Source: Schmidtea polychroa (taxonomy: Eukaryota). Taken from it: a DNA stretch of 64,000 nucleotides. The notes below the pieces were generated by a model that saw only the letters and a list, made by a program, of their open reading frames with translations, searched no databases and was not told the DNA's origin. Position numbers and translations under genes: made by a program. The stretch spans positions 36,704,001 to 36,768,000 of the forward strand of contig CM097888.1 of NCBI GenBank assembly GCA_044892525.1. The letters run 5' to 3'. Of this stretch, positions 251-28,200 are shown in pieces (positions within the stretch are counted from its first letter, which is position 1; the number at the start of each line of letters is the position of its first letter).

Positions 251-358
251 TAGCAGATTGGATACTGATTTTAAGGAATTGGAGGTTCATTTTAATAGTG
301 AATACTACGCCCACCTTGAGGGAAAAACCCGGAAATTGAGAAGGAAAAGTTCAATATG

Positions 359-1388
359 AGTAGGTAGTTAGTAGCTCCCTGCAGCAAGCACCCCTTTTTT
401 TGATTACGCAATTGCTGCAGGGAACTACACATATTTTTTTCAATACAAATAGATAGGCCCTATAGAAAAAAGGCTAAGATTTCTCAGACTAGTTAGGGGG
501 TCTCCTTGGTCCTGGGATTTGCAATACAAAATCCAATTATCACTAAAAAAACATGTAATTTAAAGTCTCAGGATATTTTCAATTTAAAAAGGTGGTCTAC
601 ACACTAAAAAAGCCAAGGATAAGATAGTATTATTTGGGTGGGTCCTGGGATTTTAAATACAAATTTCAATTATCAATAAAAAAGTTATAGTAATTTAAGT
701 TCTCAGGATATTGTCAATACAAATATCAGTCTATATTAAAAAAGCGTGAAATTTTCCAAGTAAATTAAGGTGGGTCTCCTTGGTTCTGGGATTTTCAATA
801 CAAAAAGGGGGTCTTCACTAAAAAAGCATGGTAAATTTTTGAATTAAAGTAAATTATGGTCTAAAAATTGAATTACATTAAATTATGGGCTCAGATTTTT
901 GAATTAAAGTAATCAATGGGTTCAAATAAGTAAATTAAGGTTCAAACTTTAAAATTAAAGTAAATTAAGAGTCTAAAAATTGAATTAAAGTAAATTATGG
1001 CTAAGTTAATTAAGATAAATAGGTAAATTAATGGCTAGATTTTAAAATTAAGTAATCAATGGTCTAAAATTTTAAAGTTAAAGTAATATTTTTAAATTAA
1101 GTAAATTAAAGTAATAATTTTTAAATAATTAAATTAAAGTAATGTAAGATTTTAAATTTATTAACAAAAAGTTTGAATAACCAACAGCTTCTGAGAAATA
1201 AAATTTTTTAACATAAATTTTAATGAAATGTTTTTCAATGTTAATTTTTAATGAAAATTTTTGTGGGTTATTTTTTTTAAGTCAATTTTTAAAGTCAAAT
1301 TTAAATGAAATATTTTTAAGATAATTTTTAGGTCAATTTTTGTTGAAATAATTTTCAAAGACAAATTTAGATACAAATTTGAATGATG

Positions 1389-1465
<77 letters not shown>

Positions 1466-1550
1466 TCAACCAAATACTATACAACACATAAAAATTAACT
1501 AGACACATAAAAATTAACTAGAACAAAAGTAAGGATATAAAATTTATTCA
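359..1550 (+). repeat. Polinton left terminal inverted repeat with internal sub-repeats and an (AAT)n tract
   Basis: Reverse-complement match to 7112-7861 from the terminus to the inner block caaccaaatactatacaacacataaaaattaactagacac; the ggtcctgggattt..caatacaaaa motif recurs three times; (AAT)n at about 1389-1460. Confidence 0.85.
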
Positions 1551-1578
1551 TCGAGTATTTGCTTATAATAAGCTCTTT

Positions 1579-1929
1579 TTAATTCAGCCAGTAAAATACG
1601 AATAATTTCATTCTTCTTATATTCTTGGCAGCATCTAGACTATACCTAAACGGACATGGTAATTTCATTGGATCCATACACACTTCACAATCTTCTAGGC
1701 ATTTAAATCTTGATTCTTGGACAGAATCGTAATGCATTCGTATAATTTCTGATATATTGATCCCCGTTAATTGCTTGATTCTATAAGCTAATAATTCTGG
1801 AGCGCAATTCGAAAGTCTATTCTTTATATTCGAGAACAATTCTTCCATCTTTGTTAATATTGTTTGAAATATATACGCTTGCTTATCGTCATCCATTTTT
1901 TTTGAATTTATGTTTTTGTAGATATTCAT
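1579..1929 (-). CDS. Polinton accessory hypothetical protein with Cys cluster (116 aa)
   Basis: Intact ATG-initiated ORF just inside the left TIR; C-x3-C-x2-C-x7-C cluster CLEDCEVCMDPMKLPCPF. Confidence 0.55.
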   Translation of the reverse strand: MNIYKNINSKKMDDDKQAYIFQTILTKMEELFSNIKNRLSNCAPELLAYRIKQLTGINISEIIRMHYDSVQESRFKCLEDCEVCMDPMKLPCPFRYSLDAAKNIRRMKLFVFYWLN

Positions 1930-1953
1930 TTAATTTTAACACAATTAATTAAA

Positions 1954-2431
1954 TTAATTTAATAAATATTCCAATATTTCTTCATTTGTTGTTATATTTA
2001 TAATTAATGATTTAATGAAATTCTGAATTTCTTGAATTTGATTAAAATAATCAAATGTTTTAATGCCTAATATAACTACTTTGCCACTTGAAAAAACATT
2101 TACACATAGAGTTATACTTGAGAATACATAAAGCCGGAAATATTTCAGGTTCGTAGTAACTATCGGTTTTCATTGACAATGCATTTAAATCAATGCATTT
2201 ACTGATATCTAACGTTAATGTAATTGATTGTATTTGGAAATCTTGAATCTGATGTTTGAGATAACCTTCTTGTAAAGGTTTCTTATGTCCCATTATCCTG
2301 CATTTCCCGCTCTTGAAGAACAAAATTGGATATTTTCCGCTTCTGTCCACAACATGTTGAGGTTTTCCTGATGGGAACTTCATTCCATTTACTAAGCATC
2401 TTCCTCTATAATTAATGTTGCTTATTGACAA
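1954..2431 (-). pseudogene. TATA-binding protein (TBP)-like gene inside the Polinton, one 2-nt frameshift
   Basis: Repeat 1: ISNINY...ILFFKSGKCRIMG. Repeat 2: FQIQSITLTLD...IDLNAL...YEPEIFPAL. After restoring 2 nt near 2101-2106 it reads VNVFSSGKVVILGIK. These match TBP motifs LIFSSGKMVCTG, FKIQNMV, YEPELFPGL and LIFVSGKVVLTGAK. Confidence 0.8.
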
Positions 2432-2552
2432 GGACTATCTTATAGTCGAAAATATTTTCATTAAATACATTATTTGCAGCAAAAAGCTTAAATTATCACT
2501 TTATTGGTTTATTCTAATTATAGACAAATTAAATTAAAATAATTTAATTAAA

Positions 2553-3176
2553 ATGGATTTAACAAATGACGCAGTATATCAAATTGTAGGACCTAGTGGA
2601 AGTGGGAAAACTTTATTTGTATGTAATTTATTACAATCAAACAAGTTTAAATCAAAATTTAATAAAATATATTGGCATCGAGGGGCAGATGAAGAGCACG
2701 GATTGACTCAAAACAGTTTCTGTAAATTAAAAATGACAATAATTAAAGGATTTGATAAAAATTGATCATCTAGATTACGCCAAGGTAATGTTGTTATTAT
2801 CGATGATCTATACCAGGAAGCAAATAAAGAAAAAGATTTTAATAATTTATTTCCAAAAATCAGTAGACATTATGGAGTTACGGTTACTTTCATAACACAA
2901 AATCTTTTTCATCAAGATGGAAGTCATAGAACTCGTAATTTAAATGTCCAATATTTGATTATTTTCAAAAATCCAAGAGATCAAACAATAATTGATTTTC
3001 TTGCAAGACAGGCTTATCTGAATAATAGAAAATTTTTAATAGAATCATTCCAAGATGCAACAAAAATTCCTCATGGATATTTATTTTTTGATTTTACACA
3101 ACAATGTCCAGATGATATGCGTATTAGAACAAATATTTTTAATATAAACGGTGTTACGATTTATAAACAAAACTGA
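2553..3176 (+). pseudogene. Polinton A32/FtsK-like packaging ATPase with one in-frame stop
   Basis: Walker A GPSGSGKT, Walker B VVIIDDL, ISRHYGVTVTFITQNLF, IIFKNPRD; ORFs 2553-2765 and 2955-3176 share a frame, separated only by TGA at 2763-2765. Confidence 0.9.
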
Positions 3177-3199
3177 AAACAATTTAAATTTAATTAATC

Positions 3200-3372
3200 A
3201 TGTCATTTAAAAATATAGTTGTTAAAAATCTTCCAATTGTCTCGAAAAAAGTTAACAAGAAAACAAAACGTACTAAGAAAATTAAGAAAAGTACAAAAAA
3301 TAAGAAATAAATCAAGAAGTGGATCAAATTATAAACAATCCGTTGCATTAATTAATAGTAGTAATGAAATTT
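3200..3372 (+). pseudogene. small Lys/Arg-rich ORF, frameshifted (possible core-like basic peptide)
   Basis: ATG at 3200, MSFKNIVVKNLPIVSKKVNKKTKRTKKIKK; tightly packed between the ATPase and the next ORF. Confidence 0.35.
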
Positions 3373-3681
3373 GAACGAAGTTTACCATATTTTAAAGCTT
3401 TAATAAAGGCACCAAATTCAAAACGAATATCGATTTTACATTCTTTTCCATCATTTTTTATTGATGATTTGCTTGAAGTTATTATAAATGTTGTTCGTGG
3501 TAATGTAAATATAACTAAAGCTAAAAGATTAGTATTGCAAAGACATAAAAGATCACTTTTATCTCTAGTTGATACAAAAAATCGTCGTCTAACGAGAAAG
3601 ATAATATATAAACAAAAAGGAGGGTTCTTGGGTGCATTAATTCCTATAGTCTTATTTGCAATTAGTGTAATCTCATCATAA
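3364..3681 (+). CDS. conserved Polinton basic protein ending in QxGG-FL hydrophobic tail
   Basis: ..IINVVRGNVNIT..RHKRSL..KQKGGFLGALIPI pattern of the small ORF usually found next to Polinton integrase; homolog split at 30108-30255 / 37791-37880. Confidence 0.7.
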   Translation: MKFERSLPYFKALIKAPNSKRISILHSFPSFFIDDLLEVIINVVRGNVNITKAKRLVLQRHKRSLLSLVDTKNRRLTRKIIYKQKGGFLGALIPIVLFAISVISS

Positions 3682-3686
3682 CTGGA

Positions 3687-3834
3687 ATAACTGGAACATT
3701 CTGTCAGTAATTATATTCAAATAACTGGAACATTCAACCAGTAATTATATTCAAATAACTGGAATATTTAATCAGTAATCATATCCAAATAACCGAAAAA
3801 ACTAATCAGTAATTATATCCAAACTAACCAGAAT
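3687..3834. repeat. 34-bp tandem repeat, four units plus a partial
   Basis: Units such as ataactggaacattcaaccagtaattatattcaa starting at 3687, 3721, 3755 and 3789. Confidence 0.85.
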
Positions 3835-4203
3835 AAATTTCGTGTCGGAGAAAAGAAATAATAAGAAGGTCGCTTAATTAATTAATTTTATATTTAATAA
3901 AAGTTGTAGTTACATTGTTTCGTTGTAATTTTATATTATCATCGTTATCACCTCTAATTTTCTGTAACTTACATACATTCACCCCAGCTGTCCCGAGACA
4001 GTTAATTTACTGGTGACTCAGCTGGGCTCTTACAATTTCTTTTGCATACACAGTCAGACATTAAACACATAAATAACAGGAACCCCCCAACAGTCTTATC
4101 TGCAATTAGTGCAATCTCATCATTAAGTTCTTAATGGGTATCAAGAGTTCATTACCAAATAAAAATATTGTAGATTTTAATATTTTTACAACGTATTGTA
4201 ATA

Positions 4204-5270
4204 ATGAAGGAAACGTATCACAAAACAAAAATGAAAAAGGTGAAAAGGGTGAAAACAAACGAGAAAATAATAGAGAAAAAGTTCAAAACAATATGGACAA
4301 ACCCAAAAGATCCAGATGGTTTTGGTGGTGTAGAAAAATTAACAAAACGAGTAAATAATTCAAAGAAAAAAACTCAGAAATGGTTATCTAATCAATTAGC
4401 ATATAGTTTAAATATACCTATGTTGAAACGATTTCCAACAAGACCCTACAAAACAATTGGAATCAATGATTTATGGCAAATTGATTTGATGAAAATGATA
4501 CCTTATTCAAAAATCAACAAAGGGTATAAATATATTCTGACTTGTAGTGATGTTTTTAATAGATATGCTAGTGCTATTCCTACAAAAACTAAATCTGCAA
4601 ATGAAATGGCTGATGCAATAAAAGAAATGTTCGCAGAAGATAAACCTATTAATTTACAAACCGATTTGGGTAATTAAATTTAATTAATTAATTTTTAAAT
4701 ATTTGATTTTTATAACAGCAAAGTTAAAGAGCTTATCAAAGGAATAAACCACTACTCTGTATTTTCTCAGTTCAAATCTGCACATGTAGAACGATTTAAT
4801 CGAACTTTAAGAGAAAGATTGAAAAAATATTTTGTATATCAAGGTAATAAAACTTGGATAAATGTTTTGCCAAAAATTATTTTCAGTTAAAATCATTCAC
4901 CACATAGAGGATTAAAAGAACAAAGACCTGTTGATTTTACTAAAAAAACAAACAAAGGTAGAAAAAATCAATAAACCAAAATACAAAGTTGGTGATCATG
5001 TAAGAATTAGTAAAATCAATTCTTCACCATTCATCAAAAACTTTGATAATAATTGGAGTGATGAAGTATATCAAATTTTGAAAATCGATACAAAACAGAA
5101 TTCTGTCAAGTATGTGATATTTTATCATGAAAACAAAGCAATCACTGGCAAATTCTACGAACAAGAATTCCAAATTATTCCTGCTCCTACAATATTTAGA
5201 GTTCAAAATATTTTAAAAACCAAAAAAGATGGTAAATATAAACAATACTATGTTAAATGGCATGGATCAA
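4204..5270 (+). pseudogene. Polinton retroviral-type integrase with truncated chromodomain
   Basis: WQIDL (D1), LQTDLG (D2), VERFNRTL (E), KYKVGDHVRISK, C-terminal YYVKWHG; in-frame stops, an AT-rich insert and a frameshift near 4935. Confidence 0.92.
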
Positions 5271-7112
5271 TTTGCGAGTGATTATTTAGCTAAAGCAGTC
5301 AAAACTTTGAATACTTTACCTTTAACCAATTCTGTTTTTACTGGTACTTTTGTTTCTGAAAAAGGAATCTTTCCTTACAATTTTGCTACTTCGTTAGATA
5401 TTCTTCACACTACTTATGAGTTACGATCAATCTGGGAAGGTGTCACTGAACTCGAGTATGAAAAAGCTCAGGAGATTTGGGTTGAAACTAACTGCGTAAC
5501 TTTATTAGACTATATGATGATATACTTAAAACTTGATTGTTTTCTTTTGGCTGATTTCTTCCAACAATTTCTTTTGAAATTTATTGCTCACAATAGGTTA
5601 GAACCATTGAATTATTTTGGAATTCCTGGTATGTCGTGGTTTTCTTCTTTAATGTCATTAGATGAACCGATTGAATTTATAACTGAAAACGAAATGTTTA
5701 GCTTTTATGAGAGTGGAATAAGAGGAGGTCTTACTTTTGTAAATAAACATTATGTAAAAACTGATGAAAAAACTGAGCTGCTTTATATTGATATTAATAA
5801 TCTTTACGGTTGGGCTTTAAGTCAACCATTACCTTGTGGCGAATTTTGTTGGGTTCTTGATGGATTTGATTTAATATTGGATGAATGTATGAATTTAAAT
5901 CTTGAATCTTTGTCTTATGGATACACACTTGAAGTTGATCTTGTAATTCCTTCTGAGCTTCATGATAAGTTGGATGATTTCCCTGCTGCTGCCGAAAAAA
6001 TGAAACCTGTTGCGTCAAAGGTTGAAAAATTGTTATTAACACATCTTCCAAAATTATGTGATTCATTGAAGATTATTAAAATTATACTTGGCTCTTGGTG
6101 TTAAAGTTACACGCGTAAATAGGGCTGTAAGGTTTAAGCAATCACCTATTTTTAAAAAATACATTCACACCAATACTGAATTAAGAGCTAAAAGTAAAAT
6201 TAATTTTGGAAAAAATATTATAAATTGTTAAATAACAGTTTGTGTGGTAAAACTGTTGAAAATCTAAAGAGAAGAATGAATCTGCGTCTTTGCACAACAG
6301 ATAGTAAATTAGTCAATTATACTTCAAAACCTTCGTTTAAAAAATAAATTAAAATCGATGATGATTTAATAGGTGCATTGTTAAATCCTGATTCTATATG
6401 TTTAGATAGACCAAGTTATATTGGACAATTTGTACTTGATCTATCTAAACTTAGAATGCATCAGCTGCAGCATGAAGAGTTACAAAAATATCGTAACGAA
6501 TTCAACCGTGAAATTAATATTGTTGCTGGAGACACTGATTCCTTCTTGGAAATTAAAAATCTTTCTCTCGACATTCTTTTACCTGCGATGATTAGGGATA
6601 ATTTATTAGATACTTTTAATTATGATACTTGTCATTCCTTATAGAGTGAGAACCTTGATTCTGTCATTGGAAAGTTCAAAGACGAGAATAAAGGTCTTAA
6701 ATATAAGGAATGGGGTTTTCTTAGGTCTAAAATGTTATAGCTTGTTAGGTGATGATGAAACAAAAAAGGCTAAAGGAGTAACACTGAAAAGTAGTGACAT
6801 AAAACATCAGTCATACCTGGATTCTTATAACACTAAACAAATTTTTGTAATACCGCAAACAAAAATAACAAGTAAAAATCATCAAATTTATACGATAAAA
6901 AGTACTAAAATAGCACTTACAAATGCAGATGACAAAAGGGTTTGGGTGGGGAAAATGTTAGTTTTGCATATGGGAATGTAAGATTAAGCCAATTAAATGA
7001 TGGAGAAACCTATGGAGAAATAAAAATTGATAAAGAAATTGATGGAGAAACCAATGAACTTATTGACATTGATGATGTGTTGTTAACAGATGACGATGAA
7101 CTTATTGAATAA
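5265..7112 (+). pseudogene. protein-primed DNA polymerase B, N-terminally deleted and frameshifted
   Basis: EKGIFPY, YLKLDCFLLAD, GIRGG, LLYIDINNLYGWALSQPLP, YKLLNNSLCGKT, AGDTDS, KKAKGV, DDKR, acidic tail ending at TAA 7110-7112. Confidence 0.93.
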
Positions 7113-7861
7113 ATTTTATATCTTTACTTTTGTTCTTTATTAATTTAGTTATTTTTTATGTGTCTAGTTAATTTTTATGTGTTGTATAGTATTTGGTTGA
7201 AATAATATTATTATAATTATTATTATTATTAATATTATTAAAAATTAACTTAAAAAATAATCCATAAAAAATTTCATTAAAAATTTTAATTCTCAAACAC
7301 CGACTATTAATCCAATTTTTTGTTAATAAATTTAAAAATCATTAATTTAAATTATTACATTACTTTATTTTAAAAATTATTACTTTAATTTACTTATTTA
7401 ACTTTAATTTAAAATTTTTGATCATTGATTACTTTAATTTTTAATTTTAAACCTTAATTTACTTAATTAACCCATAATTTCCTTTAATTTAAAATTTTTG
7501 ATCATTATTTACTGTAATTCAATTTTTAGACACATAATATACTTAATTCAAAAATTTACCACGCTTTTTTATAGTAGACCATCATTTTCTATTGAAAATA
7601 ATCTGAGACCTTAAATTACCATGCTTTTTTATTGATAATTGGATTTTGTATTGAAAATCCCAGGATCAAGGAGACCCCCTCACTATAGTCTGAAAAATCC
7701 TGGTCTTTTTTCTATAGGGCCTATCTAAATGTATTGAAAAAAATATGTGTGGCTCTATGCAGCAATTACGTAATTAAAAAGCAGAAAAAAATAATTACTG
7801 CAGCAGGACCCTCCTCCCCCTGGGGCTGGTGCTTGCTGCAGGGAGCCACTAACTACCTACT
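7112..7861 (-). repeat. Polinton right terminal inverted repeat
   Basis: Inverted copy of the left TIR, shorter (fewer sub-repeats, short AAT tract). Confidence 0.85.
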
Positions 7862-8061
7862 AATATGTAACTTGTAAACTTGCATGATAATAAACTAATC
7901 CACACTAGTGCCCTGTCAATGGTTGCGATTCAGGGCTGTGGCCTTTTAGAACTTCTACATCATCCCTACAGCTCTGCCTTAACTTTTTCCGATTTACATT
8001 TATTCAAACTATTTTTACTGCGATTTCAACTTAGTTTAATTGCTAATTGTTTCTAAAATAG

Positions 8062-9339: not shown

Positions 9340-9875
9340 TGTACTACTATTATGATGCTATGATGTAATTGTATTATGATATTTGACCCTTTACATCCAA
9401 TAAACTTTGAACATTTAGGGCACTACTAGCTTTCAGCTCCCTATTAACCAGCAAATCTTTTATTAACCATAAGGAATTTATATAAATTCATATAAATTCC
9501 TTGTGATTTATATAAGATTTGAATTTTTAATTAAAAAAAATTGAACATTGTAACAATTAATTAATGATAATATTAATAATTATAATATACCATTGCGACA
9601 TGTGGAGTGTGAGCAGTACCCTTGTAAGGAATACCTTTAGGAGGACAAAATATCTTGTATGATAATCTGTATTTTAATTAATTTTTAAATATTGATTAAT
9701 TGAGGAGGGGCTGAAACGTAAATAAGGGGTTGGAAGCTTGTAGTACCACATTTAGTACAAACTGCTTCTTAGTGGTTATGTATTTTGCTTATTATTATTC
9801 GAATAACGAATACTTAAAATATACCAAAATTAATCGGATATTCGAATACTCGATTATTCGGATTTGAAAACTCTA
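9340..9875 (-). mobile_element. 5' end fragment of a BED-finger hAT element
   Basis: Terminus TAGAGTTTTC with TATTCGAAT subterminal repeats; CPKCSKFIGCKGS BED segment; inverted homology to 14850-15245. Confidence 0.5.
9419..9747. mobile_element. MITE (329 bp) with 8-bp TSD
   Basis: Imperfect ~27-bp TIR GG(C/T)ACTAC..CCCTATT; perfect TSD ACATTTAG at 9411-9418 and 9748-9755. Confidence 0.8.
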
Positions 9876-9886
9876 CTCCATACTTG

Positions 9887-10645
9887 TGTTGTGGTTCAAC
9901 AAGAGAGGCACAAAAATGAGGTGAAAATCGATAAAAACACCAAATTCAAAAAAAAATTTAAAGTACAAAATATTAATTAAAAATCAAAATTTTAAAAAAT
10001 GAATATTTTCTGGGGGAAACTGGTATGGGCGGATGCTAAATAATGAGACGAGTTCAGCTATAATAAAATAAAATCAATGGGGGGTCCCTAAAAAGAATAA
10101 ATTACAAAAAACAAAAATTAATTAAAAATTAATTAACTAATGGAAAACCCTAGCTAATGGGAAACCCGAGACAAAGGAAAACCCGAGCGATTTGAGAAAT
10201 CCAATTTTGGGAAGGCAATTAATTTAGCCGGATAAAATAAAAGTGACTAGAGCCGTCAAAGAAAATGAGCTAATTCCCTCAAATTGAATTAGACCTCCAA
10301 GAGGAAGCCCGAGGGGAAGTAAGACCAAAACTAATTGGCAAAAATAAAGTCAATTACCAAGTGGGTATAAAAGCAACTGGCAAGAAAACAAAACTGCCAA
10401 TTGGTCGAAGAAAAGAAAGTCGAAGTTTAACGAGAGCGAAAAAGGAAATATTAAAGTTGAGATTTGTTGGCAAATTGAAAAGTGCAGACAAAACCTTATT
10501 GTATCAAGTGTGAGTAAACTAATAAAAAGTGTAAAAGTGTAACTGCATCAGTGTTAATAAAGATTTTGTGTTGGGTCGTTTATTTATTTTGAAAAGAACA
10601 CAAAGGAGTCAGCCCGTAGTACCGACTTATATTAAAAACCCAACA
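9887..10645 (+). mobile_element. solo LTR, Gypsy type (759 bp)
   Basis: TGTTGTGG...CCCAACA, 4-bp TSD CTTG on both sides, internal TATAAAA and AATAAA; homologous to 23033-23849. Confidence 0.9.
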
Positions 10646-10699
10646 CTTGCCAATAACAATTCTGAGGTTATCACCAAAAATGTCAAAATAGGAATGTAA

Positions 10700-11750
10700 G
10701 GAATAAAGCTTCAGGAACATTTTGGAGCCAATTCGTCTATAAGCTGTCAGTAGTTTTCAGTTTTTCTTTTTCACAAAAAACCATCCACAGCGTGTCAAAA
10801 TGCTTGACAGAATTTCTTCTCTCGCACAATCATATTTTTCCCAGTTCTTTAGACTACAGCATCAGTGTGATTTGGATACAAAATATTTTACAACTTTAGA
10901 TCTGGTTTATGAGCACTATCAAGTACAATTAAACAAAGCTGATATTATACATTTCCGTTCCTTGTATGAATTCAATAGGTTAATCTCAAGTCATCAGGGT
11001 AGATTACCATGACATCTCAGGAATGTGGAAGAAATTCAATGGCTGTGATCATTTATGATCTATTGATTTGGCTCGAAATTGCTGAAAAGGTCAGCATGCA
11101 ATTAAACATTCAGTTTTAAATACACCTTTATATAATCCAATTAGATGATAAACTTTCTTTTTTGTCATATTATCTGGGCTTTTTGAAATATTTTGCTTTT
11201 GTAAATCCTTTTCAGACTTGTGGTAGTTCATACATGCTTTGATTATCAATCGCATGATTTACCGAGAGAATTTGTGGTCAAAATATCTACCGAATGAGCT
11301 TTTGAAGTCGATTGGCGGTGTTCTTAAATTGGTGAACTATACAAAATAAAGTATTTGCTGCATCATATACCTGTAAGAAGGATCTCAAAAGGAAAAGTAT
11401 TTGTATGATTTATCTCTTTGCAAAGTTACTTTTCACAGCCATATTTTTGAAAAATTGAACGTTTGAAATTCGATACGAAAAGAAACAAACGAAAGTCTAA
11501 TTAGATGTACAGTCAAATTGAGATCTTTCACCGAAAGTTAGAACTGTGGAAAATGATATTATACATTTTTCAGAAAGTTCAAAGATTTATCAGATTTATC
11601 AGTGCAAGAAAACCTCTGAATCATTACTCTGGATCTTTACCATTACTTTATTTTCAATTGTTTGAGTGGGTCATCAATTCCTTTCTAAGAAACAACGATA
11701 CACATTTTTTGTTGAAACTCTTATAGGGTATATCGTGGAACAAATTCTTT
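10700..11750 (+). pseudogene. heavily degraded hAT (Charlie/GTF2IRD2-like) transposase remnant
   Basis: Fragmentary reading ..EKLN..KLRSF..LELWK resembles the hAT C-terminal half; many stops. Confidence 0.3.
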
Positions 11751-12037
11751 TTGGCCAATGAGGCGTAAAATGAAAAAAATAGGTTTGGCCGAGACTATTC
11801 TAAAATATCCATTAATTTTCATCAGCTTACAATTTTGCCACCTCAACAATTAAAACTAAATTAGAAATTTCTTGGTCAAAAAATGACCCTATGAAAGCTT
11901 AAAGGTTAGAATGACTATCAATTTTATTTACGCGCTAAATTTTCATTATTTAATTGCCCGAACAAAAAATTCAAAAATCAATTAATAATAAATAATTCGA
12001 CATATAATAATATATTTTTTGCAATGTTAAATATTAG

Positions 12038-13207
12038 ATGGGAATTTCAGATTCTAAGATTGTGTCGAAAAAAATAGAAAAAAGCATTATAAAATGCCCA
12101 ATTGAGACTACAGAAATTATTGCTTCAGATTGTGAGAGCATTGTAAATAATCAAATCCAGAAGCAAAATGTTTTTAGTGTAACCAACGTGAATACTTTGA
12201 CATCCAACCAGTCCATAGACTCTATAAGCAATCTCTCATTTCTGCATTCAGATTATATCAATAGTCCCATAAATCCTTCGAATGATATTAAAAAAAGACC
12301 TGTAATTCAAAACATTAACAGCAAGATTGAACTCCTGGACACTAGTCTCAGTGATCACAATTTATCCCTTGACGATTTCTCTTCTTCTGAAACTTCAACT
12401 GATAGCAAAACTAGTTCTGAAGATGAAAGTGTTGAATCTAAATCGGTACAATCGAATAACTCTTCCCCAGCTTCCAGTGATAAATCAAATAATTCCTTAT
12501 CGGAAAATTCGCATATTTGTTTTAATCAAGGGTTCATTAACTCGTTCAAAGAAAGATATTCTAAAAGTAGGAGTCCGATTTCAGTAAATAGATCGAAAGA
12601 TAAAAATACAGAAAAAGTTAAAAATTTGGACGGGGAAGACAGTTTTACAGAAGTTACAAACATGTTACCTAATGACCATCATAGAAACCTATTCAACAGT
12701 AGGGACCGTGAAATTAAGTCTTTCAAAGAAACATCATTAAAGATTGTTAGTAGCGAAAAAGATTCTGATAAATCTGCAATTAATAATTCTCTAAAAGTGG
12801 GGGAACTTGTTAAAGAAAAGCAATCTAAATCAGTTCCGATATCCAAATCGGATATGAGTAACAGTTTATGTGCTACAAAAATGAATAATTCTTTAAGTAC
12901 AAATATTAATGACTGTAAACCTGGTTTCAAATGTTTGTGTTATAAATTTTGGGTAGACGCTACTTTTGACACTTGGAAGGTATTTCATAATCCCAGAGAT
13001 AGAAGGATTGAATCTATTGGAAGGTTATCAAATTGTCAAATTCGATTGACTAAAATTACTCAAAGAAGTTCAAAGGGTATGTTAAAAAGACAAGTATTCG
13101 TATATGCTTCCTCCCTTTCGGCATTGGAGAAGTGTTGTAAATTATTCGATGATAAATTTGCCAACTTTTGTGCTTCTTCCGGTTTGAGTATGGATAATTC
13201 AGTGTGA
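12038..13207 (+). CDS. Ser/Asn-rich disordered protein with a C-terminal degenerate KH-like domain
   Basis: 389-aa ORF; C-terminal YKFWV..RRIESIGRLSNCQIRLT..RQVFVYASSLSALEKCCKLFDDKF has type-I KH beta-alpha-alpha-beta-beta-alpha pattern without GxxG; may be a terminal exon (TTAG immediately before ATG). Confidence 0.6.
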   Translation: MGISDSKIVSKKIEKSIIKCPIETTEIIASDCESIVNNQIQKQNVFSVTNVNTLTSNQSIDSISNLSFLHSDYINSPINPSNDIKKRPVIQNINSKIELLDTSLSDHNLSLDDFSSSETSTDSKTSSEDESVESKSVQSNNSSPASSDKSNNSLSENSHICFNQGFINSFKERYSKSRSPISVNRSKDKNTEKVKNLDGEDSFTEVTNMLPNDHHRNLFNSRDREIKSFKETSLKIVSSEKDSDKSAINNSLKVGELVKEKQSKSVPISKSDMSNSLCATKMNNSLSTNINDCKPGFKCLCYKFWVDATFDTWKVFHNPRDRRIESIGRLSNCQIRLTKITQRSSKGMLKRQVFVYASSLSALEKCCKLFDDKFANFCASSGLSMDNSV

Positions 13208-13667
13208 AATGAGTTGACAGATGTGTAGGAAACATTGATTGTAATCAAATTAAGTAAAATTAAATTTTTTAATGAGCAAATCTTTTAATCTTTCAAAACA
13301 AGTGTTTCTGAAAAGAATCTAAATTTGGCCGAAATTATTCTTTACGGAATAAAAATACATAATAATATTAGGATTTTAGTAAGGTGCAATGCATATGTAT
13401 TTCATTTGATTAATTTATAGTACACATTAATTAACCAATTTGATTTTAGGGAATTTATGATTAATTTCAACTGAAATTGGTCTGTTTAACATAAAATATT
13501 TCGATATACAATTGGGATTATATATATATATATATATATATAGCATAAGTAAGCGCCAAAAACATTCGTTTTACGAAATATTTCGACAGTTTTCCAGCCA
13601 TCATCAGATAGAATATAATAACTATAGAAATTATAGATTTTTGAACAAATTTATTAATTATATTAAT

Positions 13668-14213
13668 TACAAGCTGTTGTACCCGGCTTCGCCCGAGTTT
13701 ACATTTATTGTAATAATTTATTTAAATTAATTTTTTGTTTAATGATGTTATTACGTTCCAGTATTAATTTTATAACAGCTTCAATTCCATGTTTAATTCA
13801 CAATATGAAAAGCTTTCAAAATAAATTTCAATTTGTAAAATCGAAAAGCACTCCAATTTAAATCGGAAAATAACTGGCAATATTTTTCCAATTGCAAACT
13901 GGTTCACTAATCAAATAAAATTCAAATTCTCCATGTTTGAATTCTGATTTGAAAACTTTTGACTAAATTATATTACTTTCAACTGCAAGTAGCAAGCATC
14001 TAATCAATTATTATTTATATGGTAAATTGCTGACCGGACAGACAAGCAAACCGACTTAGGCTACCTTAGGGGTGGTCACCTGGGGTTGAAACATAGCATA
14101 TGACCTGTCCCGAGTTAAATTAGGCTCACATGCAAAATTTCAGCACCCTAGGTCCAATAGTGGGAATTATATGGGTAACAAACAAACAAACTTTCATCTT
14201 TAAATATTAGATA
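13668..14213 (+). mobile_element. non-autonomous Helitron-like (Lep1/HINE-type) element
   Basis: 5' AGCTGTTGTACCCGGCTTCGCCCG; internal catgcaaaatttcag; 3' caaacaaacaaactttcatctttaaatattagat. Confidence 0.55.
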
Positions 14214-14379
14214 TCAATCTTTAATAAAAATATTTTATTCTGTAAAAATTATAATTCAAATAATAAAATTTTTTTTAATTATAGCAAGTTTAAAATATTG
14301 AAATTCAAAATTATCCAATTTAATAATTTAATACTTATTTAATTTAACAACAACAACCATACATACAATATACAAAAAA

Positions 14380-14520
14380 CTATTTAAAAACATTTAAAAC
14401 ACAAGTATTCACTGCATTTTGCACATTAATTTTCGGATCCAATGACTTTATCAATAACACTTCACAATTTACACGTTCGCAATAATTATTGAAATTTTTA
14501 ATAAAATTTTAAAATCAGAC
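14380..14520 (-). mobile_element. Penelope-like 3' end fragment
   Basis: Homologous to 18040-18180 (ttattcactgcatt..cacattaatttt..ttatcaataa..cttcaca). Confidence 0.5.
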
Positions 14521-14787
14521 ATACCTATTTTTCTCTTACAGCTCTTATTGTTATTATTATTCTTCTTTGTACTAATTAATTAGTAATGACCTTGGTTTTT
14601 GTTTTCTTGTTTAATTTCTTTTGACGATCTTCCTCCAGGTAATTTTATTTATTATAAATTTGTTATTTAGGTATCCTCAACAATATTAATATTATACGTT
14701 AATTGATTTGTTGTTTAATTTTAAGGTAATATATAACATAAATTTCAATAGTAAATTCGTTTAAATTTAAAATGTCAATTTTTCAAG

Positions 14788-16445
14788 TCATGACCTCAAA
14801 AATATACGGGGAAAAATCTGATGTTTGGACTTATTTTAAAAAGTTACATAACTATAAAGAAGAAGTTTGTACTAAATGTGGTACTACAAGCTTTTAACCC
14901 CCCTATTAACGTTTCAGCCCCTCCTCAATTAATCAATATTTAAAAATTAATTAAAATACAGATTATCATACAAGATATTTTGTCCGCCTAAGGGTATTCC
15001 TTACCAGGGTACTGCTCACACTCCACATATCGCAAGGATATATTATATTTATCAATATTATTATTAATTAATTATTACAATGTTCAATTTTTTTTAATTA
15101 AAAACAAATCTTTTATTAATCACAAGGAATTTATATGAATTTATATAAATTCCTTATGGTTAATAAAAGATTTGCTGGTTAATAGGGAGCTGAAATCTAG
15201 TAGTACCCTAAATATTCAAAGTTTATTGGATGAAAAGGATCAACTACCCCTCCCTTAATTAATCATCTAGAAACACATGACATCGCAATTACTAAATCTA
15301 TTGTTGAACAAGAAACGCTAATAAAAAAAGTATAAAATTGAGGATCGCACAATTTTAGATATCATAAAAAAATCATCGCTGAGTGAAATACTATCCCAAT
15401 ATGCTGCTAAAGTGTGTCCATTCGTACAATTAGATATTCAGAAGCAGTTAAGGGCTATGTTGTATATAAGAAGTCTAAGATGCCAGCAAGTGAAGCCACC
15501 ATCTAGAAATATGTTTACGATTATTTTAATGAAAAAAAATCAAATGACCACGCTATTTGACTAGTACAAAATGGGAAATGAAACGTTTTCTCTAACTGTG
15601 GATAAATGGGCTGACATCAGCGTTATACGATTTTTAAATGAAATCATACGAACTTATGATAGCATCTAAAAATTACATGAGAGTTTTATGTTATGTTTAG
15701 TCGATATTAAAGAAAAAGCGGATGCTTAAACCACTGAAATATACGTCAAATGCGCTTAGAATTTGACAGCGATATGGAATCAGATATTGTAGCATCTAGT
15801 CATGATAGGGCGGCTGTCATGGTTAGATATGGCAATAATACATGTGGCAATTGTGCCATAATCACGCATGGCACCTAGCAGTTTATGATTCTTTGTATAG
15901 CAAGGAAATATCTGATGATACTTTTGTTGAACAATATCTAAAATCTGATAATGACATTTCAATGAGCAAATCAGAATAAAGTAAAATTGAAGATGATTTC
16001 AGTAACAGCCATGATATCAGCACTGACACTAAGTCAATTTATCATCATGCAATCTTTCCATTCGAGAATGATAACGATAATTTTATTTTGTCTACGGAAG
16101 AATCCTGTCTACTGGAGCTCAATGTATAAATTTCTTCTATTATAAACAAGGTACGGAAAATAGTAAATATTTTTCAAAAATCTCCAGCCAAAAATATTAA
16201 ATTTTAAAAATATGTGATCGAGCAGGGAAATAAAAAACTTAAATTTTTTATCGACTTAATAAACAAGATAGAATTCGATGACTATGATGGTGCGAAGATT
16301 TTTTCGCCTTAAAGATTGCGTTAATCACGCATTAGTTTATCTAGGTTATGAAACTGTGACTGAGAATGAATCCACTTTTTTACATAAAGTGCTTGTTGTA
16401 CTGACTCCGCTTGAAATTGCAGTCAAAGAACTTAGTAAAGTTGCA
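14788..16445 (+). pseudogene. degraded BED-finger hAT transposase
   Basis: SDVWTYFKK, GSTT..LINHLETH, FSLTVDKW, IINKVRKIVNIF, RFFRLKDCV..LTPLEIAVKELSK; candidate right end cgtgacgtaattatgcaataaccc near 16764-16787. Confidence 0.7.
14880..15207. mobile_element. MITE (328 bp), second copy, inserted in the BED finger
   Basis: TIR GGTACTAC..CCCTATT; TSD CTAAATGT/CTAAATAT; inverted copy of 9419-9747 with the same flanks. Confidence 0.8.
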
Positions 16446-20129: not shown

Positions 20130-21889
20130 TAGGGCAACCCAAAAGTTGCAAAAAAAAGTTGCAAAAAAACTTAAAAAGTTGCAAAAAAACTTAAAAAGTT
20201 GCAAAAGTTGCAATAAAAGCTGACTATAAAATAATATTAAATTTTTTATTATTTACTACAAAATATAAATATAAAATCATTAACGTAGAATTCCTTTGTA
20301 AACGGGAAAACAAGCAAAAATTCTTGATAATTCTTTGGTCTAATGTTTCGGATCAAATTGTTTTTATTCATCAACTGAATTGAAATAGCAGATAAAGTAA
20401 TACGGAATATTATTTCCGTTATAATTCCTGTCCTCTCTTAACATTCTTTTCAGCATTGAAAAGCTCCTTTCCACGTCAATTGACGTTGGCTGGCAATTTT
20501 TTAACTGAGAATATGTTGCTGGCGAAATTTTGTCGTTAGACAACTCCAAAATGTTGTTTAAGTCGTTTTTAAACATTCTTTCCTGAATATAAGATTTCAA
20601 ATTACAAGGGTCGTCTTTGAAGTCGAATTCATTTATTCTTTTAAATGCACTTTCAATTGAATGTTTTGAATCTTCAAGCTCATCAGCCAATACAACTAAC
20701 CCCCTGTAACAATTAAATATTTCTTCCAACTCTTTTGTTATCGTTTCTTTAAAAATAGCCGTTTTCGCATTTTCGATCAATATTCCCTTTTGAGTTATTT
20801 CCTTGAAATGTAATTTTATTTCTGGCAGTATTTTAGAATAAATTAATGCAGCGCCAAGCCAACTTGACCATCGTGTTACAATAACATCTGGAATATTGCC
20901 TGCCTTAGAAAGAATTCTTTTATTTTCTTTATTTTTTGCCGTTATTGACTTAATCGCAGAAATCATATTATCAGCATCTTTGTAGTGAATTTTTAATCGC
21001 ATTGCACAATTATGAATTAGGTGCGCAATACATTTAATTGAGAAAAGGTTTGGATGCACGATTTTTAAATGATCGGCTGCTTTTCGCATGTAGCTAGCAT
21101 CGTCGCTTAACAACAGCAAAAATTGTTTACTTTCAATTTCAAGAATATCAAATGTTTCATTTATAATGTTGACTACAATTTGGTGGGTTATCGGAGCTTT
21201 CAGGTGTATTAAATTGGCCACGTAAACAACTTTAGGAGATTCGATTGTTCCTATTAATACCATGGCGTATTTTTCTAAGTTGATTGAAGTTTCATCCACA
21301 ACAAGAAATATTTCTTTGTTTTTGACATAATCTTTCAATTTATTCAAAACTGCTGGGTATGTATTTTGAATAATGTATCTTCGCATACTCGATTCAGATG
21401 GAAGTGGATAGGTCATGAAATTAAAGAGCCTTTTGAGACTATTATTTCGTAGTTTGTGAAGCGGCAGGTCGATTGATATTAACGCGGTTGTTAATATTTC
21501 AAGAAATTCGCTCTTCTTCAAGCTTATAAAGTCTTGTTTAGCGGGTTCTTCGCTATTTAATTGGGATAATAAGGTGGAATGCTTAAAACTTCTTCGGTGT
21601 TTTTCAATCGTATATTTTCTTTTGTGGTCGACTGTTTTAGAACACAGATTGCAGTACAACTGATCGTTTGGGGCCATTACAAACTCCTTATTGTATAATG
21701 CACAGTATTTTCTAATGTTCGAATTATTTTTCATGGTAAAAAAAATTAAAAATCTATATATGAATATATAATTTTTAAATCAAAAAATCTATATATGAAT
21801 ATATAATTTTTAAATCAAAAAATTTCCAAAAAAAGTCAAAAGTTGCAAAAGTTGCAAAAAGTTGCAAAAAGTTACAATGGGTTGCCCTA
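20130..21889 (-). mobile_element. complete hAT element (1760 bp), CGGBP1-related group
   Basis: 12-bp TIR TAGGGCAACCCA; perfect 8-bp TSD CTTATAAC (20122-20129, 21890-21897); AAAAGTTGC subterminal arrays. Confidence 0.95.
20364..21734 (-). CDS. intact hAT transposase (456 aa)
   Basis: N-terminal C2H2 finger YCNLC..HKRKYTIEKH..KH; LVVDETS, LLSDDASYM, CIAH, TRWSS, VERSFS. Confidence 0.92.
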   Translation of the reverse strand: MKNNSNIRKYCALYNKEFVMAPNDQLYCNLCSKTVDHKRKYTIEKHRRSFKHSTLLSQLNSEEPAKQDFISLKKSEFLEILTTALISIDLPLHKLRNNSLKRLFNFMTYPLPSESSMRRYIIQNTYPAVLNKLKDYVKNKEIFLVVDETSINLEKYAMVLIGTIESPKVVYVANLIHLKAPITHQIVVNIINETFDILEIESKQFLLLLSDDASYMRKAADHLKIVHPNLFSIKCIAHLIHNCAMRLKIHYKDADNMISAIKSITAKNKENKRILSKAGNIPDVIVTRWSSWLGAALIYSKILPEIKLHFKEITQKGILIENAKTAIFKETITKELEEIFNCYRGLVVLADELEDSKHSIESAFKRINEFDFKDDPCNLKSYIQERMFKNDLNNILELSNDKISPATYSQLKNCQPTSIDVERSFSMLKRMLREDRNYNGNNIPYYFICYFNSVDE

Positions 21890-25200: not shown

Positions 25201-28200
25201 AATTCATTAATAGAGATATTCCTTGATGTTTTTGAGTTTAAGGACATCAGAAGTCTACTTAAAATTCAATTGATTGTTTTTTAAAAACTTTATTAATAAA
25301 ATTTTTCATTCTCATTAAAAATATAAAAATATTACTAAATAATTTTATCAGGTTTATTAAATTTCGACAAAACCGCAAAATTTACAAATTTTATATAAAA
25401 CGGACAATGAGAACTATTTTCAATGGNNNNNNNNNNNNNNNNNNNNNNNNNNNNNNNNNNNNNNNNNNNNNNNNNNNNNNNNNNNNNNNNNNNNNNNNNN
25501 NNNNNNNNNNNNNNNNNNNNNNNNNNNNNNNNNNNNNNNNNNNNNNNNNNNNNNNNNNNNNNNNNNNNNNNNNNNNNNNNNNNTTTAAGCCTTTTGCTGC
25601 AAATAATGTATTTAATGAAAGAATTTTCGACTATACGAGGACTATCGTATAGTCGAAAATTCTTTCATTAAATACATTATTTGCAGCAAAAGGCTTAAAT
25701 TGTCATTTTATTGTTTTAAATAATAAATGCTGCTANNNNNNNNNNNNNNNNNNNNNNNNNNNNNNNNNNNNNNNNNNNNNNNNNNNNNNNNNNNNNNNNN
25801 NNNNNNNNNNNNNNNNNNNNNNNNNNNNNNNNNNNNNNNNNNNNNNNNNNNNNNNNNNNNNNNNNNNNNNNNNNNNNNNNNNNNNNNNNNNNNNNNNNNN
25901 NNNNNNNNNNNNNNNNNNNNNNAGATGAAAATTGAAAAAAGTTCTTATAATAATAATAATACTCCCTCTGTCCTATAATACTGGGTAGTTTTCGTTTCGT
26001 GTCCGCGGATTATTGCGAATATAAGGCTCTACCTCAATATTATTTTCTTATGAGTTGAATTAATCATACGACTTTCTAAAAACATCATTTACCAAAAATA
26101 TAACCGTATCTCCTTTTTTTATTTCATCATTATTTCATAAAAGGTCAAAATTACAAAAGTCGTTGTCCCATATTACTGGAAAGTTTTCACAAAAAGCTTG
26201 AAATACTCTATAATTTGTCAAGAATTAAAGAAAATAACGATAATTCTAAACTTATTTGTTCACATTTAACAATGTTTTATGATTACTGGACATTCCCTAT
26301 CATTTTGACATTTCATTTTCGTGATTTTATTTTGTAAACACCATTTCAGTTTTTCGTCATAAAAGTTTAATTTTTTCAAATTTTTATCCATAAATATGTA
26401 ACGAAAGAAGCGTGAACTTTCCAATGAACAAATGAGGCTAATATTTGAGGATTTTTTAAGTGAAAGTGACAACGGAATTCTTAAGAGGGATGCATACAAT
26501 TCCATTGCAAATAAATACCATGTGAGTATTCAAATTGTAGCGAAAATCTGGAAATGAAGTAAAGAAATCAGTCCATCGAATAAGGGTTCAAAAACACTGG
26601 GTGGAGTTGATCCAAAAAAGAAGAATTTTGAATTAAATGGCAATTTTAAAAGACAATTTGTATAGAATAATTTGTACATAGAATAATTTTATTGAATAAT
26701 AATAATTTTTGTGTCTTTTTAATTAACTCTAAAATTTATGAAATTTGCATGAATCTAAAACAACGGTTATCCTTTTCTATCAAACCAAAGTATTTTTCAT
26801 TTTCATAACTCAATAATGTCAAAACAAGGCACTCAAAAAATAAAAATTAAAAAGCAAAAACTTGAAGAAAGTGAATCGATGTGGCAAAAACTTGTAAAAC
26901 GGCTGAGAAAAGATACACCAGAAGTCGGAGAAGGGTCTTCTAATAAAAAAACTGCAACACCTCTTGAAATTTTACAGGGTCTGCATGATTTTGGATTAAT
27001 TAAATCTTATCCAAACATCAATATTCCTTACATTCCCAGTATCAATGGCTTTGTATGAGAGAAGTTTTAGCAAGTTAAAATTAATTAATATTTTTTTAAG
27101 ATCTACTATAGGACAAGATAGATTATCCAATTTTGCAATAATACCTATCGAGTATAACATCGTAAAGGATATTAATTATGACGATATAATTAATGACTTT
27201 GCTCAAATGAACGCCAGAAGAGTGCGAATAAATGAAAATTAAATAATATTATAATATAAATTATATTATAATATCATATCTATTTGAACTATAATTACTT
27301 TTTCCTTAATAATATTTTGAAAATCTCAAACTTCCGCGCTACAGTGAGATAAAACAAAAAAGTAAAAATTCGCTTTTAAATCAATATTTGCACTTTTTGA
27401 TCAATACTTGAATTTCTATTTTGAAAAATTTTCACTTAAAAATCAATAAATACACTTCAATAAAAATTTTAAAAATCAATAATCACGACAATCAATAATC
27501 GTAAAAATCAATAATCGCGACTTGACCTTGAAAAAAATTGAGGAGGCCAGGGCCTCTGTTGCTAACTAGTGCGCGGTAACTTTTTTTATATAAATATATA
27601 AATATAAATAATTTTAAGTACTTACTCCTAAACTTCTCATCACTTCCTGTTGTGTTACAATCTCACAACAAAAACTTTCTGGTTTTTGGAAATAGTTGTC
27701 AAACATCTCCTTATTATATTCTACAAGACTACTACCCAATATAACGGTACAATCTTTGAATACAAAAAAGTCGGTATTATTTGTTAAAATGGCGAAAGAT
27801 TTTCTTCGATGAAATTCTGAAGCGATAAATTCATTTGATCCTCCTTGTAACAACTTAACAACTTCGGCTCCAGATTTCTGAAAGTAACAGTAGATATTAC
27901 TTTGAAAACGTAACACGAAAATAAATTAAAACCGCCAACTGTCTTAATATTTCAAAATGAAATTATTTTGGTATTAAATATTAATCATATATCGAATAAA
28001 GAATAGAAATTTCATTTTGGATTGATTAAAAATATTTCATTTAGAATTCTATGATTTCATTTTTATGAATAAAATTTTACTTGTATAAAAATTAAAAACA
28101 TGAATGCTATGTAAATAATAATATAATTTTTGAAAAATATTTAGAATAAAATATAATTTTTTTAATTATAAGCTCGATTTAAAGTCGTTTGAGGTTATTT

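Follow-up and report, generated by a model that had tools for sequence, protein, structure and literature searches.

A 64,000-nt stretch of the Schmidtea polychroa genome (contig CM097888.1, positions 36,704,001 to 36,768,000; hereafter the window) contains a Polinton/Maverick in which a gene resembling the one for TATA-binding protein (TBP) had been predicted from the letters alone. We asked whether the element encodes a TBP, whether its relatives keep the gene, and what the protein might do. To our knowledge, it is an open question in the field whether integrated Polintons leave their transposon-like state for particle making, and by what means, and the conserved element TBP with the matching promoter box described below would be a candidate switch and target sequence for particle production.

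The window carries a decayed Polinton

Positions 359-7861 of the window are occupied by a decayed Polinton with an internal deletion, flanked by a 6-bp target duplication (Table 1). Its TBP-like frame lies inside the terminal inverted repeats (TIRs), head-to-head with the packaging ATPase gene, as the original prediction had it, and the four motifs named there (FFKSG, EPEIFP, NVFSSG and PQH) are all present. Two pieces of the broken frame match the Pfam TBP family separately, one above the cut-off (E 1.8e-8) and one below it (E 0.0014). Comparison with a full copy identified the window copy as an internal-deletion derivative: about 9 kb of the middle is gone, with the junction near 5266, and the capsid, protease and 5' polymerase genes are missing. 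The frameshift proposed for the TBP-like gene was found at ~2109-2115, but it is not the sole lesion, as ~75 nt of foreign DNA, missing in intact copies, also replaces the start region (~2426-2508). The start codons of the TBP and ATPase genes are 50 nt apart in 10 of 10 natural copies, so the segment 2432-2552, previously taken as the intergenic DNA between the two genes, is mostly not element DNA.

The small ORF downstream of TBP is syntenic in several S. polychroa Polinton families, has no YATAAAC box and matched no Pfam family. The ATPase of an intact copy scored above the cut-off for Pox_A32. Elsewhere in the window we observed a second element with long inverted repeats (9380-15246; arms 9380-9782 and 14845-15246) flanking a 389-aa Ser-rich ORF (12038-13207), an open 471-codon frame on the minus strand (20364-21779) that by eye we take to resemble a DNA transposase, and a palindromic MITE-like repeat with 55-nt arms (25584-25733), to which the foreign DNA in the start region of the TBP-like gene is related; the 40 candidates scored for this repeat in the S. 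polychroa genome contained 84 matches when both strands are counted.

Table 1. Features of the window Polinton, numbered from the first letter of the window
Feature	Position	Strand	Evidence or remark
Left target-site duplication, AATATG	353-358		Sequence; second copy at 7862-7867
Left TIR, begins AGTAG	359-1520	+	Inverted arms pair with 7146-7873; inner boundary approximate
Small ORF downstream of TBP	1579-1929	-	115 aa in intact copies
TBP-like gene, broken copy	1954-2425	-	Pfam on pieces; natural open copies; fold; alignment to intact copy
Foreign DNA, ~75 nt	2426-2508		Related to a dispersed palindromic repeat; boundaries approximate
(T/C)ATAAAC(A) box position upstream of ATPase	2519-2526	+	Drifted in the decayed window copy
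Packaging ATPase (A32/FtsK-like)	2553-3176	+	One premature stop in the window copy
TATAAACA box, end of ATPase gene	3162-3169	+	Upstream of a small basic ORF starting at 3200
TATAAACA box	3330-3337	+	34 nt upstream of the protein-X-like gene
Adenovirus protein-X-like core protein gene	3364-3681	+	In intact copies Adeno_PX exceeds the cut-off (E 2e-6)
Integrase with C-terminal chromodomain	4204-5266	+	Decayed; a short AT-rich GT..AG insert, likely an intron, splits the frame
Protein-primed DNA polymerase, 3' part	5266-7110	+	Decayed; DNA_pol_B_2 E 8e-11; blastn to full copy
Right TIR, ends CTACT	7146-7861	-	Inverted-arm pairing and sequence
Right target-site duplication, AATATG	7862-7867		Sequence

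Intact copies of the element and of its TBP-like gene

We searched the S. polychroa genome for further copies of the TBP-like gene. An open frame of 170-177 codons, free of stops and encoding a 158-aa protein, was present in 137 of the best-scoring 150 matches, a count biased to good copies because these 150 were scored out of 3964 candidates. The ~158-codon frame that had been reconstructed by repairing the frameshift thus exists in an open form in nature. Ten copies of the family were examined, and five resolved as elements of 16.6-17.9 kb with AGTAG termini, TIRs and 6-bp duplications; our script did not resolve the termini of the other five. The gene order of intact elements is small ORF, TBP, ATPase, protein X, integrase, two putative minor capsids, a 132-aa ORF, major capsid, protease, an optional RING ORF and polymerase. 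Pfam searches of the family copies recovered the protein-primed polymerase (pPolB), a retroviral-type integrase, the packaging ATPase and an adenain protease, and the model of the 407-aa major capsid ORF matched the double-jelly-roll capsids of PBCV-1, mavirus and Sputnik (best E 3.5e-14). The family carries two tandem minor-capsid-like paralogues of 341 and 338 aa, which had no Pfam match and are called putative minor capsids by position and size only. Two further observations were made on these copies: four of ten full-length copies have an intact RING-finger ORF of 360 aa, located between the protease and polymerase genes, and the TBP-like gene occurs in tandem 670-bp duplications at C21:221944-222949 and C2:189539039-189541384 (two and four copies).

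The gene is not confined to this family. The PF00352 profile gave 2998 candidate matches in the genome; when 20 loci were sampled, six were host-type genes and the remaining 14 (14/14) lay within Polinton gene arrays of several families. With ~3000 candidates, element TBP genes would far outnumber the few TBP-family loci of the host. The TBPs of the other Polinton families are mostly 50-62% identical to that of the window family, and identity to canonical TBP is ~30%. Among six families the dN/dS of TBP was 0.135-0.39 in 15 of 15 pairs, compared with 0.05-0.11 for the ATPase in 10 pairs, from which we conclude that the element TBP gene evolves under purifying selection. The expectation that the ORF would be kept in other copies, and would not be a one-off capture, was therefore borne out both within the family and in other families.

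We also noted at least six TBP-family loci of the host, among them divergent ones without introns, and two clusters with 13 matches to TFIIB-like ORFs that are 301-310 codons long and likewise intronless; taken together, these sequences make a host expansion of basal factors possible. The multi-copy TFIIB-like ORFs were considered as Polinton genes and rejected, as they lay outside Polintons in the three stretches read. The top TFIIB-family match in the genome is presumably Brf1, judged from its motif.

The protein has the TBP fold and an altered DNA face

We analyzed the intact 158-aa protein by profile and structure. Pfam TBP (PF00352) matched it with E 3.4e-16 and 59.3 bits against a cut-off of 22.9, and the AlphaFold model had a pLDDT of 94. 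Foldseek returned 44 matches at E ≤ 0.001, with TBP in all rows shown and the next row at E 0.045. In VIA, residues 1-144 aligned to residues 164-337 of human TBP (Z 13.2, rmsd 2.4 Å, 142 residues over both repeats). The TBP fold that had been anticipated was recovered by all four methods, and by model and profile the protein is a member of the TBP-fold family, one that departs from canonical TBP in its set of four intercalating phenylalanines and in the helices of repeat 1.

Surfaces were compared by profile alignment to canonical TBPs and by column counts over 102 rows; the conservation values are inflated, since the rows came from a word-seeded search. The acidic residues of the TFIIB stirrup are kept (E93 in 98/102, E95 in 101/102) in a motif of the eukaryote type, EPE(L/I)F. 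Three of the four intercalating phenylalanines are retained (F38, F97 and F113) and the first is replaced by proline (P23, 100/101). Several other residues of the DNA face are fixed in the family, namely N6 (94/97), R44 (99/102), M46 (102/102), S68 (98/102), R101 (100/102), C109 (102/102) and N111 (102/102). In the profile alignment R101 corresponds to yeast I194 and N111 to L205, and C109 falls on V203 or beside it. In the literature, stirrup residues E144/E146 are given a contact role with TFIIB (PMC10005294), and I194, V203 and L205 are the yeast positions that change TATA specificity in TBPm3, with the N-terminal repeat of TBP reading the 3' half of the box (PMC1636458). The loss of one phenylalanine and of the canonical Asn/Thr contacts could mean weak DNA binding; polar residues are fixed on that face, however, which would fit a newly acquired specificity better than a loss.

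In the subclade of the window family both repeat-1 helices, H1 and H2, are lost, with no helix before residue 81 in the model and repeat-1 anchor spans of 37 and 29 compared with 47 and 42 in canonical TBP. The claim that repeat 1 is shortened stands for this subclade but not as a general trait, as a deeper subclade, which has Ser at C109, appears to keep the helix length.

Relatives of the protein outside S. polychroa

A search beyond this genome yielded 123 homologues, mostly of 144-165 aa and none informatively named; ten that were looked up by name carried generic TBP labels only. In the Atlas the matches were to clusters of TBP, at a recognition value that did not reach the trusted level, and a profile search gave 61 representatives at E ≤ 1e-30. 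Another Polinton gene was present in 37 of 80 metagenome or viral loci, the 80 including six that resemble ordinary or large-virus TBPs, and in 26 of the 33 loci of at least 3 kb. TBP occupies at least three positions in these outside loci: ahead of the ATPase, in one orientation or the other; following the protease; and between polymerase and ATPase. Neither TBP nor the ATPase had a match in a phage collection.

The Polinton-linked TBPs formed one starred clade (100, starred) on a long branch, on the eukaryote side and apart from the host genes. The larger tree was made after dropping 18 of 112 rows as near-redundant, and a second tree of 39 chosen rows was used for the AU test, in which a grouping of the Polinton clade with the host TBP-family genes was not rejected (p 0.47). 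The candidate sister rows were weakly supported at best (82-84) in a tree without named viral TBP sequences, and a scan for viral TBP outgroups found none. Shallow nesting within host TBP with neutral evolution, which would have spoken for a recent acquisition, was not what we found, given the purifying selection and the separate position of the clade in the free trees. We conclude from these comparisons that the Polinton-linked TBP is a core gene of one Polinton lineage and that recent neutral capture from the host is excluded.

A YATAAAC box precedes the virion genes

We read the 80 nt upstream of gene starts in 25 loci, where a shared box, (T/C)ATAAAC(A), emerged. The hexamer ATAAAC was present before the ATPase gene in 19 of 19 loci, which are related to one another and not independent, at 31-49 nt from the start (shuffle mean 1.2, maximum 5) and never on the antisense strand. 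Within the same 80 nt it preceded the major capsid gene in 12/13 and protein X in 10/12 loci but TBP in only 1/24; the count for the minor capsids, 13/15, is soft, as four of the start picks were wrong. In three TBP-bearing elements listed gene by gene, the box was absent before the TBP and polymerase genes. The box before the major capsid gene lies in coding sequence, where Ile-Asn is written ATA AAC in 12 of 12 cases, both codons being minority choices in the capsid gene of the family (0.18 and 0.05). Only the ATPase box is clearly non-coding, and the others overlap codons such as YKQ/DKQ.

The box departs from the canonical TATAWAWR at position 7, which is fixed as C (C7), in the half that the most altered repeat of the protein would read. 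Canonical TATAWAWR was not enriched before the ATPase (3/19 against a shuffle mean of 3.7). Before the TBP gene it occurred in 6/24 loci, which is not significant against the shuffles (mean 2.4, maximum 6).

A second Polinton group lacks both TBP and the box

The S. polychroa genome contains a second, distant Polinton group of ~15 kb with a phospholipase A2-like domain on its integrase. The TBP profile gave no real match to this group within eight of its stretches (best E 0.03), and the one real TBP match in those stretches belongs to a neighbouring TBP-bearing element. The box was found 25-100 nt upstream of 0/36 ORFs in three full TBP-less copies, compared with 50/117 ORFs in nine TBP-bearing elements; ATAAAC within 10 nt of two start codons of the TBP-less group is not at a TATA position. 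With a single TBP-less lineage, the co-occurrence of TBP and box counts as one independent contrast, and no TBP-less control elements emerged from IMG/VR when it was scanned with the ATPase and capsid sequences and with alignments of each. Several genes of the TBP-less group have CATTTT shortly before an A-rich start, possibly a promoter word of their own.

Probable introns point to host polymerase II

At the start of the protease gene a two-codon exon is followed by an insert, ATG-RA-GTAAG..AG, in 17 of 18 loci (L127:9390-9480 and homologues), and a TATAAA(C/T) box lies ~30 nt upstream of the protease start. The integrase insert (4668-4720 in the window) is at a single site inside the catalytic TDxG motif, is AT-rich with GT..AG ends and varies in sequence. 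It occurs in 14 of 17 S. polychroa loci compared with 0 of 11 metagenome loci, with an (ATT)n microsatellite in several families, and is likely a recently gained intron. Contigs of four runs, compared with a natural copy, contained no joint across the integrase insert, a result that says nothing on splicing either way. The GT-AG inserts look like spliceosomal introns and point to nuclear Pol II; among the ORFs of the 17-kb Polinton there is no RNA polymerase subunit. For these two reasons we propose that host Pol II would transcribe the element genes.

A proposed role for the Polinton TBP

On the patterns in these sequences, we think it rather probable that the Polinton TBP binds the (T/C)ATAAAC(A) box and, probably via host TFIIB, starts Pol II on the virion genes, as an element-specific late-gene switch. 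The TBP and polymerase genes, which have no box, would be made first from host-type promoters; the altered DNA face would then read the C-containing box better than host TBP does, and the intact EPE(L/I)F stirrup would dock TFIIB. The repeat-1 helix surfaces of TBP are used by TFIIA, Brf1, Mot1 and TAF1, and in the compact subclade the loss of these helices may have removed those surfaces and freed the protein from host control. The stronger form of the proposal, a one-protein switch in which a two-step transcription programme operates throughout an animal Polinton lineage and a minimal, re-specified TBP ignores host regulators and opens the YATAAAC promoters of the capsid and packaging genes, has in our estimation about an even chance of being right. 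If true, no smaller viral late-transcription system would be known, Polintons would have their first defined gene-regulatory circuit, and protein and box would make up a natural orthogonal TBP-promoter pair.

The evidence was weighed against three other explanations. Host TBP/TFIID might itself read YATAAAC, with the element TBP acting as a repressor or decoy, on the box or by sequestering TFIIB, and so silencing virion or host genes. In sequence and distance the box resembles TATA, TATAAAC differs little from an ordinary TATA box and could be read by host TBP, and a stirrup retained alongside the loss of one phenylalanine and the regulatory helices is what might be expected of a dominant-negative protein. 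This explanation stays alive because host TBP can bind a C(-25) variant, wild-type TBP having been crystallised on such a TATA variant in 1qn3, one of the Foldseek matches. We nevertheless judge it unlikely: the box is fixed at C7 with no enrichment of canonical TATAWAWR before those genes, the TBPm3 selection went against C in the downstream half-site (PMC1636458), the box goes unused in the TBP-less family of the same host, and the polar residues fixed on the DNA face suggest new specificity, not loss. Redirecting transcription to element promoters appears to fit better than a decoy because a TATA-variant box marks virion genes only in TBP-bearing elements.

We see only a slim chance that the protein has a non-transcriptional DNA-binding job, such as packaging with the ATPase or recognition of the terminal repeats or origin, with the box read by something else. 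The TBP gene often adjoins the ATPase, and replication initiators are another place where TBP-like folds are seen (RepDE, Z 6.7 in VIA). The gene is also found after the protease or after the polymerase, however, the TFIIB stirrup is conserved, and the boxes are on the sense strand only and at promoter distance, all of which favour a part in transcription. A captured host TBP retrocopy carried neutrally, to which the intronless gene and the AU result might seem to lend themselves, is barely credible in view of the dN/dS across six families, of distant metagenome elements that share residues and keep the frame open, and of a divergence from canonical TBP greater than that between families. The AU result is compatible with an ancient animal donor; ancient capture followed by a new function is part of the explanation that we favour, and recent or neutral capture is refuted by the sequence comparisons.

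Comparison with known systems

The Polintons described here share TIRs, the 6-bp duplication, pPolB, a chromodomain integrase, the ATPase, adenain, a double-jelly-roll capsid and protein X with Polintons/Mavericks (adintoviruses) as presented in the accessible text of Starrett et al. 2021 (PMC8502044). The original prediction knew of no TBP in Polintons, which holds apart from a figure legend in the section of that article on non-animal datasets, where a TBP-like gene is labelled in related MELD elements (also in the preprint, 10.1101/697771). The word 'promoter' is absent from the main text of PMC8502044 as available, and no TBP family, residue analysis or promoter box is described there; PMC6431247 makes no mention of TBP or TATA. 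In the openly accessible literature searched, that label is the only description of a Polinton TBP encountered. New here are the control group without TBP, the codon-level constraint on the box, the mapping of residues and the corrected reading of the intergenic DNA in the window.

Like cellular TBP (PF00352) and TRF2/TBPL1, the Polinton protein has the two-repeat saddle, three of the four phenylalanines and the EPE(L/I)F stirrup. It differs from cellular TBP in the change of the first phenylalanine to proline, the altered DNA face, the loss of the repeat-1 helices in the window subclade, the lack of an N-terminal extension and the long-branched clade of its own. TBP-like proteins of Nucleocytoviricota in BFVD match the Polinton model in structure (best E 2e-8, 18% identity). 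NCLDV carry their own RNA polymerase genes. The same is stated for mirusviruses in the portion of PMC10132985 available, whereas the 17-kb Polinton has none.

The closest parallel to the proposed function is with ORF24 of KSHV, BcRF1 of EBV and UL87 of HCMV. According to PMC6541308, these beta/gamma-herpesviruses share with the arrangement proposed here a viral TBP-like factor, a modified TATA box on structural or late genes and the use of host Pol II. ORF24 differs in that it binds Pol II directly within a six-protein complex (PMC6541308), whereas the Polinton protein is a bare core of 145-170 aa with a TFIIB-type stirrup; no partners of an ORF24-type complex were identified among the element ORFs, and the window family encodes a single TBP core of 158 aa. 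The boxes differ as well, that of the Polintons being altered in its 3' half (ATAAAC) and that of the herpesviruses being TATT. By analogy, the Polinton TBP and its box most likely work like ORF24 and TATT without being a member of that class, which suggests that small viruses, like herpesviruses, came independently to a TBP of their own and an altered TATA box on late genes. The Polinton TBP would serve as a natural test of which surfaces a TBP can do without and of the ways in which TATA specificity can be changed.
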